From Octopus sinensis (lineage: Eukaryota), in the NCBI RefSeq assembly GCF_006345805.1, contig NC_043007.1, forward strand, positions 75,020,001-75,084,000: a stretch of DNA of 64,000 nucleotides. The letters run 5' to 3'. How positions within the stretch are numbered: position 1 is the stretch's first letter; every line of letters starts with the position of its first letter. The notes below the pieces were generated by a model. That model did not search any database. It had not been told where the DNA came from and saw nothing but the letters and a program-made list of their open reading frames with translations. Below are positions 48,301 through 57,300 of this stretch, one piece after another. The position numbers and the translations under genes are program-made.

Positions 48301-51300
48301 ATACTGTTGCCACAAACCAGTTGCTTTTCCCTTTGCCTAAAACTTTTAAGGGCTCACCTCCCTGCAGTTTATGTGTGTGCATGTTGATTTTTTTTTAACA
48401 TAAATTTAATTCTTTTGACATTATCATCTTAGATCATAAAAAATTACTTTTGTCTTACCAAAAGCAAAGTAAATCGAGTTACTCTTTACCAATAGCAAAA
48501 AGCCAGCAATACAACCTGTTTCTACTCTAGTCAAATCTTCTACTTTGATAATATTATTGCCAATTTTTTTTGGTAGTTAAATATGAGGATATTAAACAGC
48601 AGAGTAGTATACAAGTGAACAAAAAGGTTCTGCATAACCCCTTCAAGGAAGCTCAAGGATTTTTTACTGAGCAAATGTGTTGCTCAAACTCTAAAAATGT
48701 TTCAGTTTTTAGAATTAGTATGTATCTTTACATATTATAGGAAATAAGAGTTGGTGCCAAGAAGGGTTTCCATAGTAAAATGCTGCCCCAAAATTCCCTG
48801 TTTTATACATACCAGATGAGAAAAGTAGATATAAAACAATGATATGATAGAATGTAATTATAATAATAACATATAGCAGAACAGTATCAGTCATATTTTT
48901 CATTCAACAAGATCGTTTTGTTTCAAGCTTCCTGAGAAAATTCATCTTATGCTTTGATTTTTGAAGATCTCTTTCATTTATCTTCAAATACTTTCCCAAA
49001 GTTCTGTCTTTCCATTATCACCTGAAGATTGGAAATGACAAACTCAAACTAATAATAAAATATGATACATATATATGTTGATAGATATATATATATCATA
49101 GGTATTGCAAATTGACAGAAACTTAATCTAAGTGTATAAGTATTTATTAACATCTAAAACTATTCGTTATCAGCTCTTACAAGAAAAAAATTGTCTTTGT
49201 GGCATTTTTATCAGAAAAAATGTTTAAAAATTACACTGAAAGGGATGCAACAGCTCGTGTTGCTTCCCTTGCACAGATTCTTTGTGTTGTCTGCCACTGC
49301 TTGTCGTCTCATACTAATTCTGACAATAAAAGTCTGAAGCTTATGATGACATGTAGTTTATATTAATTTTACAGAACATTAGAAGAACGATCTTATGAAA
49401 AATAAGTAATATAATTTCAATTTTGCTTCAAAAATTTTTAAGGAAAGCTTCTCTTGTTTCCATGTTTATATATATATATATATATATATATATAATATAT
49501 ATATATATATATATATATATATATATATATATATATATATATATATAAATATATATACATATATATATAAATATATATACATATATATATACATATATAT
49601 AAATACATATATATATATGTATATATATATATATAGCCTTGGGCTGAACAAAGGCTTGGTAGACAGAAACTGAAAGAAGCCCATCATATATATATGTGTG
49701 TGTGTGGATGTGTGTGCTTATGTGTGTGGGTCTGTGTTTGTGTGCCCCCCTCCACCATCACTTGACAACCAATGCTGGTGTGTTTATGACCCTGTAACTT
49801 AGTGGCTCAACAAAAGATGCCAATAGAATAAGTACTAGGCTTACAAAGAATAAATCCTGGGGTCGACTTCTATAACTAAAATCCTTTAAGGTGGTGTTCT
49901 AGCATGGCTGCAGTCAAATGACTGAAACAAGTAAAAGAATAAAAGAATATCTATACACGGTAATCCTGTTCACCTATCACGGTTTATTATTTAAGCTAAC
50001 ATCGATTCCTCCATGGTGTTGTTTTGCATTTATAATAAAATAAATATATACAAATTATAAAAATAATTTTTAAAATGTACAGTACAGTACTGTTTCTACT
50101 TCACAGATTTTCATCTATCACAGGGAGTTTTGGAATGTAACACCCACAATAGTCAAGGGATTACTGTGTGTATATATATATATATATATATATATATGAT
50201 AATAATAATAATATGAGGGAATATTATTCCAAACTTACAGGGAAAAATTCAATTTAGAAATACTAAATCAAATTTCACAAAATATAATACATATATATAA
50301 ATTAGAAATAAAACCACCTTTTATCAATTCAATAAGGAAAAATTATATTATACCATTTAGAAAAAATTACATATATTTTTTCTAATTTATATATATATAT
50401 ATATACCTCACATACACACCAAGTGTGTGTGTGTGTATATGTATATATATATACACACACACACGCACTTGGTGTGTATGTGAGGTAGAGAGATTTATGT
50501 GTGTCTCTCTCTGTCATACCCAATCAGTAAGCTTTCTAACCAAAGAAAACAAAAACAATATCGTCAGGAATGTTAGAAAATAATTATATTCTGTTGAACA
50601 CGGAATCCATAAAATTATTTAATTCTACAAAAGTAAGAGAGTGTGCCAATCTAACATAAATCTTAATAATTATAAGCTGACACCATTTTTTACTTAAAAT
50701 ATTTGTTTATTTGTTGTTGATTTTTTTATATTCTGTTTCTATTAATATCACCATTCCTATTTGTATAAAACCATTTTGGATTTTTATACAACATGCAAAA
50801 ATGGTATTTTACAGCACTGCAATATTTGACAGTTTTGTTTTATTTTAACGCAGTACCTAGCAAAATGTCACTTCAAAAAGCTATTTTTTATCAAATTTTT
50901 ATTTGCCATCACATATCATCATACAACACACACACACGCACACACACACATACACACACACACACATATACACATGCATATAATGAGGTTACAATATATT
51001 AAAAGTGGAAAGATTTCTGGTTTTCCTATCCTTTCTTATCTAAACTGAGGATATTTACATAATTTCTTAATTAGTTTTTAAGTTCAAAAATATATTCTTT
51101 AAGTTCCAGAAACCATGAGGCTTTGAGGCTTTTCATAAATTCTTTCTGTAAAATTGTACAAGTTTTGACATTAAACTTGTCCCTCAGAAAAGACGTACAA
51201 AATCTTTTCATGGCTAAAGAAACTTGCCTCTTCGAATTTGTGCATGTAATTTTTCTTACCAAAATATAGAATTCTTTCTTACCAAACTATAGGACTATGA

Positions 51301-54300: not shown

Positions 54301-57300
54301 CTCTCACAGTCAAGGATATGTTCAAGGATATGTCCTGCCCTTTCTGCTACTCCTCTAGCTTTATATGAATCCACTGGTGTCATTATATTCAAGCCAGGTG
54401 GTATTAGATTTAAGTCTCTTCATCTACACAAGAAAATTAGATGGTTTGAAAGATGAGCTAGTTTTTGATGGAGCTTCTCAATATGTCTCCATTGAAGTCT
54501 AATGTCAGCTCCGTACCGATTAGATAATACAGTTCTATATTTAAGAGATGAGGAGAATTATGTACATTATTTACATTATTTACATTTGACAGATATTTGT
54601 CATCATCTTGTTTGTTGCTAACACGTTTCAGCTGACATACCCTCCAGCCTTCATCAGGTATCTTGGAGAAATTTCGAACCTGGGTTCTCATTCCTAAGGT
54701 ATTTTTCAATGTTATTATTATTATTATTCAGGTCACTACCTGGAATCGAACTCAGAACCTTAGGGTTAGTAGTCCACTGGAATCTTGGGGTTAAAAGCAT
54801 GGGCTACTAACCCCAAGATTCCGAGTTGGATAATAATAATAATAAAAATAATAATAATAATAATAATAATAACAATGATAACATCCAAAAATACCTTAGG
54901 AATGAGAACCCAGGTTTGAAATTTCCCCAAGACACCTGATGAAGGTTGGAGGGTATATCAACCGAAACTTTGTGTTAACAACAAACAAGATGAGAACAAA
55001 TATCTGTCAAATGTAAATAATGTAAATAATGTACATAATTCCTTATCTCTTAAATATAGAACAATACTATTGTTGTTATCAAAGTCTTTGTGTCACAGAC
55101 ATAATGATGACAATGACAATATTACAATAGTTGCGTGAAGGCAGCAAACTGACAGAACTATTAGTGTTCCAGGCAAAATGCTTAGTGGCATTTCGTCCTT
55201 CATTACATTCTGAGTTCAAATTCCACTGAGGCCAACTTTACCTTTCATCTTTTCGAGGTCGATAAAATAAGTTCCAGTTGAAGACTGAAGTCGATGTAAT
55301 CACTTGCCACTACTTACATACACTTCCACACCAAAATTGCTAGCTTTATTCGAAAATTTGAAACTAATATTACAATAGTTGTGTCACTATTGATTATGCC
55401 ATTATTGCACTTAGCATACCTTTTAATTTAAGATTTCATTCTCAGCAACATTAAGTGATTCAAATAAAATATTAGCTATTATATGGAGAGGACAAAACAA
55501 ATACCTCTAAAATAGGTTGCACTTACAATTGCTAAATCTTGGGTTCAATTCCTAGATCAAGCAATGTTTTGTGTTCTTGAGCAAAACACTTCATTTCTTG
55601 TTGCTCCAGTGTCCCTTTCAACCGGAGGGGAAAGTTGGCCTGTTCACCTAGCCAATGGGGTGGAATCATTTGATGGCTAAAACGATGCAAAACACATTGT
55701 AACCTGCAATATGAAACATCTGATTGCCTGGCCGGTCATGTGATCGCAATATTTTTAGATTGATTAACTGTATCTTCTATTGTTTTTCTTCTTAGGAAGA
55801 TGTTTTTCTTTTCTATTGACATAGGAAACACGAACAAATGGTCACAAATATATTTAGCTTGAATGAAATAGTAAATTTCTTGACTCATTTGGTTTAAGTT
55901 TTGTAGAGAAGGGAAAATCTACATCAGAAAAGCTTGAATATTTTCTTACTCAATCAACATTTTAATCAACATTTTAGTCTCTAACTTGATTAGCTTTTAG
56001 AAGTTTTATGGTATAGCCTAAATATCTTGGGTTTTAACTGAGAGTCTCTTAGTAAATGCAGTTTTAGAATTATATTAATTTTTATAAGTTATCATCCTTA
56101 TCCTCATTTTAATAGTATGGTTAGTATGGTTCAGACAGATGTACAATAGTCTTATGCCATACCTCTTGTTTTCTCCTCCTGTATCATATCCCATCATTGT
56201 TAGAACTAGTTTTTCTTCTCACACCATTTTCACTCAGCATTTTCCATTTATAATACATGTAGTACTATCTCCTGTATACGATGTCTACTTATGATTCGCA
56301 ACTTTTGTTACATTACTGCCACATTAGTACTTTCACTGAAATGTTTATTAAAATATCATTTTTTTTAAGATAGTAGGGTGTGATTTGAGGGAAGTTTCAC
56401 TTCTGTTTTTAGCAGGTTATGGTTAGAATTTCTCAAGTTTTCATCTGTACAATACAATTTGTATACATCACCATTTTCTCAGTATTCATTTGAGATTTTT
56501 TTTTTTTTTAAATTTCTTGTTCTGTTTTTATTCCACAAGTTTTATAATTTCTTTTTTTATCATTATTATTCCTTTTATTATTATTATTATTATTATTATT
56601 ATTATTATTATTATTATTATTATTATTATTATCATTATAATTATTATTATTATTGCTCTATTTTGCTGGAAATGTCTTCATCAATTTTAGCTGTCCTGCT
56701 TAGTTATCAATTATTACCTTTCATTTGCCTCTGCCCTATCAGGAATTTGATGCTAATCAAGATGGCACCGTATCCCTCAAAGAATTCCGTAATGCAATGG
56801 AACAGCAAAAAGTGTATTCTAAGTAAGTCAAAAAGCATGTAAGAAATAAGAAAAAAAATAAAGTTAAAAAAAATTCTTCTGTTGCTGTTTCCATGACTAC
56901 TAGCACCACTACTACTACTATTACTACTACAACTACTACTACTACTACAAACTTTTGTTGATTTTTTTTTTACAATTGTTGCTATCTGCTCTCATATTTG
57001 TTTTTAGAGTGTAGTTCCTGCTACAGTTACTTCTATTGCCGTATCAAAAAAACAAAAAAAAAAAACAAGACAATGTAGAATGGAATTCAGTGCTTGCTCT
57101 ATTAGTTTGCATGACAAAACAAGAAGAAAGTTGAAATTTAAAAAATGTGATTTTTTCCAAAAATTTTTCTTTGCTTTTCAAACAAAATAAAATAGATTTT
57201 TGAGAAAAAATGTTTTAAATATTTTTGAAGTTTATTGAGTGGTTTTATTAATTAATTGTTTTATTAAAGTTGTTATTTAATTATAGTATTTAGATTTGCT

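Follow-up and report, generated by a model that had tools for sequence, protein, structure and literature searches.

Segment exchange by alternative exons has been described in several systems close to the one reported here, a pair of 80-nt exons in a 64,000-nt stretch of the Octopus sinensis genome (NC_043007.1, positions 75,020,001 to 75,084,000; hereafter the window), each of which encodes the first EF-hand (EF1) of the ryanodine receptor (RyR). Within the same family, the a/b exons of insect RyR are likewise tandem, mutually exclusive, about 30 residues long and found in invertebrates with a single RyR gene (PMC3989282, PMC3787966, PMC6026295, PMC8301844), and their stage- and tissue-biased use has been shown (PMC3989282, PMC3787966, PMC6026295). 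The insect pair, however, lies in SPRY2 near residues 1135-1173, whereas the octopus pair encodes EF1, has a length that is not a multiple of three and maps to rabbit RyR1 4079-4105, so that the two pairs are not the same. Caenorhabditis elegans also has one RyR gene, unc-68, with tissue-linked alternative exons, but it varies first exons and DR2 cassettes rather than the EF-hand (PMC7644089). In vertebrates, the very segment 4079-4105 is tied to isoform-specific Ca2+/Mg2+ inactivation of RyR1 and RyR2 (PMC5715910, PMC12119028, PMC10832476); there the variation lies between paralogous genes, whereas in octopus it would arise by splicing of one gene.

The tandem exons of the CaV2 channels are named e37a/e37b or EFa/EFb. 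In CACNA1A/B/E, these mutually exclusive exons swap an EF-hand region and thereby change Ca2+ feedback (PMC9741552, PMC9177970), but CaV2 is a vertebrate plasma-membrane channel with an EF-like motif, whereas octopus RyR is an endoplasmic reticulum release channel with two canonical loops. Tandem duplicated exons also exchange part of an EF-hand in ACTN1 and ACTN4 (PMC9741552, PMC9177970), where one copy alone keeps Ca2+ binding, whereas both octopus copies carry the full ligand set. An on/off switch of the actinin type was rejected for octopus because neither copy has lost Ca2+ ligands, and the retention of every side-chain ligand makes tuning likelier than switching. The actinin exons also lie close together, with distant branch points, whereas the octopus exons are 5.4 kb apart, which rules out a steric block as the mechanism of exclusion. 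The kind of mechanism is familiar; in octopus it falls on the part of RyR most closely tied to inactivation, and any effect on function is predicted. No description of an EF1 exon pair was found in a literature search that left subscription journals mostly outside its reach, and no mention of RyR splicing was found in the accessible parts of a scallop RyR paper (PMC13362341). An initial annotation of the window had likewise pointed to no description of the switch; the pair is, however, already implicit in automated RefSeq isoform models. The explanation we prefer, with a probability of roughly 0.6, is that one RyR gene with two tandem EF1 exons yields channels that would differ in their shut-off by high Ca2+/Mg2+ or calmodulin.

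The forward strand of the window carries the portion of the RyR gene that corresponds to approximately residues 3493-4417 in the protein of Octopus bimaculoides, and its exons can be aligned with solved RyR structures in the central and EF-hand domains. EF1 exon A (51293..51372, + strand) and EF1 exon B (56743..56822, + strand) both run from phase 0 to phase 2 and end in a split codon, for Arg in A and for Asn in B; the donor of B is the canonical GTAAGT. They are flanked by a constitutive 66-nt exon (44866..44931, + strand; rabbit RyR1 4057-4078, including the equivalent of E4075), present in the window as a single copy, and by a constitutive exon encoding EF2 (62587..62748, + strand). As homologous exons of equal length and equal phase within one intron interval, A and B are tandem duplicated exons. 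Their coordinates, AG/GT ends, phases, open frames and identity at 14 of 27 residues are as given in the initial annotation, whose exon numbers 21 and 23 for the flanking exons are valid only relative to the window. Its reference to many silent differences was overstated: the exons share 53 of 80 bases, and only 4 of the 14 residues common to both have differing codons. Translation bore out the frame rule that it had proposed. A alone or B alone gives a continuous frame through the EF2 exon, whereas splicing in both leads to a TGA at 62607-62609 and splicing in neither to a TGA at 62596-62598, both early in that exon. Exons A and B scored 30.2 and 27.4 bits, respectively, with Pfam EF-hand_1 (cut-off 25.4). 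When all 24 stop-free candidates of the form AG-80 nt-GT/GC in the interval were scored as EF1, only A and B stood out (91 and 89; next best -4.6), indicating that the window contains no third copy and that the pair is not a product of chance. The EF2 exon had a single match in the genome, that is, one RyR gene match, and a second RyR gene was rejected as the origin of the variants on this basis. An assembly gap (100 N at 36377-36476) lies in an upstream RyR intron.

Alternative use of the two exons was apparent in relatives. Both window peptides are present letter for letter in RefSeq isoform models of O. bimaculoides, with B in 10 and A in 2 of the 12 models listed (from 15 of 40 cluster members). 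A second source was a Logan protein cluster of 13 members. Its identity to the octopus protein is 87%, compared with 94% for Argonauta, which makes a more distant cephalopod its probable origin. Nine members of the cluster are full-length open reading frames (ORFs) on 16-17 kb contigs, 7 with B, 2 with A and none with both; the A forms are ORFs of 5,180 and 5,215 residues on 16 kb contigs, in which exon A is joined to the flanking exons. Because the window needs 57 kb for one-fifth of the protein, an unbroken ORF of about 5,100 residues on such a contig would have to be spliced RNA. The two A proteins have the same species-type single residues as three B proteins of the cluster, which argues for splice forms rather than paralogs or other species. 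Contigs with B forms numbered 73, those with A forms 2. Both EF1 copies in one protein were encountered once among 561 fetched proteins, in a Plakobranchus gene model (P0008) that wrongly strings them together, the Arg-ending copy first, as in the window. Mutually exclusive use, as the initial annotation had suggested, is backed by these models and transcript-like contigs, each carrying A or B singly, and we regard the alternative use of A and B as nearly certain. In the Logan cephalopod-like animal, a 36-residue cassette in the DR2 region, near residue 1369, accompanied A in 2 of 2 cases and B in 0 of 7 (Fisher p 0.028, from rows that are not independent and contigs that neither prove phasing nor carry a tissue label), which hints at a cell-type splicing programme. 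A variable DR2-like cassette region is located between the SPRY domains, near residue 1369 in P0475 and P0481 and near 1374 in O. bimaculoides models, and cephalopod RyR isoforms also vary by several micro-insertions of 1-16 residues.

Comparison with other cephalopods, gastropods and bivalves, which the initial annotation had proposed, recovered alternative 27-residue EF1 segments within species in 12 named molluscs and also in the nemertean Lineus (two segments, 11/3). Among models containing the region, the B/A counts were 14/2 in Biomphalaria, 7/1 in Bradybaena, 10/1 in Pomacea and 4/1 in Gigantopelta; they were 5/3 in Haliotis rufescens, 6/1 in H. asinina, 2/2 in Ostrea, 5/2 in Magallana gigas, 1/8 in Mercenaria and 3/7 in Mytilus galloprovincialis. 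Ruditapes philippinarum has three EF1 variants among 5 models (P0411, P0412, P0414), one of them 28 aa long owing to an extra residue. A metagenome survey of the EF1 interval, covering 73 loci, added one locus with four tandem EF1 exons, all open and divergent (L005, 8048-9454; annelid-like by similarity, with small margins), and another with at least two (L007). The second EF1 exon of L005, preceded by a tandem acceptor (CAG GAG) and encoding a more degenerate helix, may be 83 nt long. Judging from these models and loci, the EF1 swap is widespread in molluscs, present in other lophotrochozoans and not special to this octopus. Arthropod loci (L051:778, L053:453, L055:9347, L058:1036) and the Cherax and spider proteins have one EF1 exon and a doubled preceding 66-nt exon, the two versions of which are used 7 and 7 times in Cherax models.

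At the protein level, alignment of the region with rabbit RyR1 4057-4141 requires no gaps and places the exon at 4079-4105, and since the match to solved RyRs is ungapped, the same fold is expected. The exon spans the EF1 loop (4081-4092) together with positions 4079, 4100 and 4101, which in RyR1 are contacts to the S2-S3 loop of the neighbouring subunit (PMC12119028, PMC10832476); its placing at the EF1/S2-S3 interface by the initial annotation therefore holds. The loops of both A and B are canonical, with ligands at positions 1, 3, 5, 9 and 12 and Gly at position 6. In published work, K4101E or K4101M weakened Ca2+/Mg2+ inhibition (PMC10832476), RyR1/RyR2 chimeras ranked EF1 above EF2 in the control of isoform-specific Ca2+ inactivation (reviewed in PMC5715910), and the lobster EF pair bound Ca2+ at the millimolar level (PMC5715910).

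Variants ending in Arg were labelled A, and exactly one such variant was present in all 14 molluscan cases with variants. Residues independent of the Arg column also separate the two types: Ala4090 occurs in 12 of 14 A sequences and 0 of 21 B sequences, and Trp4087 in none of the 14 A sequences but in 13 of the 21 B sequences. The net charge of the EF1 segment ranges from -1 to +2 in A and from -3 to -1 in B. Comparison of octopus with the Logan animal showed identity at 25 of 27 residues for A and at 21 of 27 for B. For L005 against L007, the upstream-type exon has 6 silent and 2 replacement codon changes, the last exon 8 and 4, and the EF2 exon 15 and 0. This cross-species conservation, with silent changes exceeding replacements, supports the old purifying selection on both exons that the initial annotation had postulated.

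The two exons differ in their splicing signals. Exon A is followed by an atypical donor, GTGTGTAT (51373..51380, + strand), and this donor recurs, unchanged or almost so, at the upstream EF1 copies of the annelid-like loci (three in L005, one in L007): it lacks the usual AA and ends in GTAT. A GTAAG donor, by contrast, follows the last EF1 copy in the window, L005 and L007 alike. GTAT at +5 to +8 was absent from the 21 other assigned donors of the window and present in 3 of 28 single-exon EF1 donors, all of them with A at +3. The motif GCATG, which we take to be of the RBFOX type, occurs 51 nt 5' of exon A (51242..51246, + strand) as a candidate silencer and 13 nt 3' of exon B (56835..56839, + strand) as a candidate enhancer. 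It likewise precedes the first EF1 exon in L005, and both L005 and L007 carry it after their last EF1 exon. All 3 multi-exon loci thus have GCATG no more than 50 nt beyond that exon, compared with 1 of 28 single-exon loci. A Paralvinella model (P0015) reads through its EF1 donor, which fits a weak donor of the exon A type. A search of L005 and L007 for docking or selector RNA pairing gave only short, scattered inverted repeats, none common to the exons. Related 62-63 nt tandem repeats lie in the introns flanking the exon pair (45775-45974 and 57749-57960) and probably represent a common satellite or mobile element.

We propose the following explanation. Exon A, with its weak donor, would be skipped where an RBFOX-type protein binds the GCATG motifs 5' of A and 3' of B, and would be used elsewhere, whereas messages containing both exons or neither would be removed by nonsense-mediated decay. 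Since neither loop has lost a side-chain ligand, each would be expected to keep divalent-ion binding, and the residues that differ (4087, 4090 and 4102-4105), as well as the difference in net charge, would adjust affinity or the coupling with the S2-S3 loop of the neighbouring subunit. On this evidence, it is probable that the A and B forms are regulated differently as channels, and a cell-type-specific choice between them is about equally probable. RBFOX-type control of the choice is a tentative proposal, as is a division with B in muscle and A in neurons; we lean slightly against each.

Several observations weigh against this explanation. D4081, N4083, D4085, S4089, E4092 and the contact residue K4101 show no variation among the 14 A and 21 B sequences compared, and the functional gap between A and B may therefore be small. 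Mutations of the EF motifs caused no major change in myotubes, and cytosolic Ca2+ still activated RyR2 from which the EF domain had been deleted (PMC5715910). The invariant Arg of the A type may reflect splice-site selection for the final G of the exon rather than protein selection. GCATG has a background of 1.28 per kb in the window, and its pattern is a lead, noticed after the fact and in two or three lineages. A second EF1 type was not seen in Littorina (11 of 11 models), Magallana angulata (3) or Elysia crispata (3), and a single type was found in Lingula (3 models), Capitella (2), Ptychodera (15), Schistosoma (11 of 15 with the region), Macrostomum (3 of 5) and Cherax (14 of 15), such blanks being weak; 10 other annelid-like loci with the whole interval have one EF1 exon each.

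The invariance of the ligands and K4101, the small number of silent differences, an Arg explicable by the donor's last exonic G and the many lineages that manage with one exon would all suit a pair of exons that are used alternatively yet give proteins of the same behaviour. In that case the cluster would be kept for regulation, for example of message level via frame-shifted decay products, and each copy would be conserved only from the need to encode a working EF-hand. We consider this rather unlikely, given that the residues specific to each type persist across molluscan classes, that cephalopod A is so well conserved though apparently the minor form, and that L005 retains four divergent open copies. 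Less likely still is a difference between the isoforms in what binds the EF1 surface (calmodulin or some other protein) or in luminal Ca2+ sensing, and not in cytosolic Ca2+/Mg2+ inhibition. Isoform-specific regulation by calmodulin does depend in part on the EF motifs, the EF domain of RyR2 is important in luminal regulation (PMC5715910), and the A/B differences lie outside the ligand positions; the exon, however, includes the S2-S3 contacts and coincides with a segment whose scrambling or exchange alters inactivation (PMC12119028). Finally, the weak donor of exon A and its rarity in the cephalopod contigs might suggest a decaying or never-used duplicate taken up by annotation pipelines. This possibility is very remote and largely refuted by the two long ORFs in which A is spliced between its flanking exons and by the higher conservation of A than of B between distant cephalopods.

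The origin of the pair was addressed with an EF1 tree of 41 rows and 26 columns, from which the split-codon Arg column had been removed; the 28-residue Ruditapes variant, Lineus, Paralvinella and several outgroup and other rows were excluded. The A/B labels required 2 changes on this tree, compared with 11.2 in shuffles (0 of 500 as low), and one origin before the split of the molluscan classes is likely on these sequences. Several independent duplications, in cephalopods, other molluscs, nemerteans and annelids, instead of one in a lophotrochozoan ancestor, appear doubtful and would concern the origin only. They are compatible with the approximately unbiased test, which with 26 columns rejected neither a clade of cephalopod A and B (p 0.18) nor clades of all A (0.30) or all B (0.28), with the lack of Ala4090 in cephalopod A, with the single exon of Lingula, Capitella and the 10 annelid-like loci, and with the convergent tandem-exon events reported in different regions of RYR3 and fly RyR (PMC9741552). 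The test left standing both a single origin and a duplication peculiar to cephalopods, and the trees did not decide between one origin and several. Besides the low number of label changes, the upstream position of the Arg-ending type in both the window and the Plakobranchus model argues against them, as do the odd donor and the GCATG placing common to octopus and the annelid-like loci. A broader scenario is conceivable but unlikely, in which a cluster of two to four copies, with a conserved weak upstream donor and RBFOX-type control, arose before the mollusc-annelid split and would supply strongly and weakly inactivating channels from the single lophotrochozoan RyR, as vertebrates do with RyR1 and RyR2; arthropods would have reached the same EF-hand/S2-S3 interface via duplication of the adjacent exon.

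The way in which the EF-hands of RyR determine Ca2+/Mg2+ inhibition is still debated, as is the reason for the difference between RyR1 and RyR2 in this respect. Here the segment exchanged by evolution is exactly EF1, the channel being otherwise the same. Such natural swaps occur in many species, with as many as four variants, and offer a ready panel for chimera tests. For animals with a single RyR, such as squid, Aplysia-type snails and bivalves, the exon pair would provide a concrete route to fit Ca2+ release to muscle or nerve.

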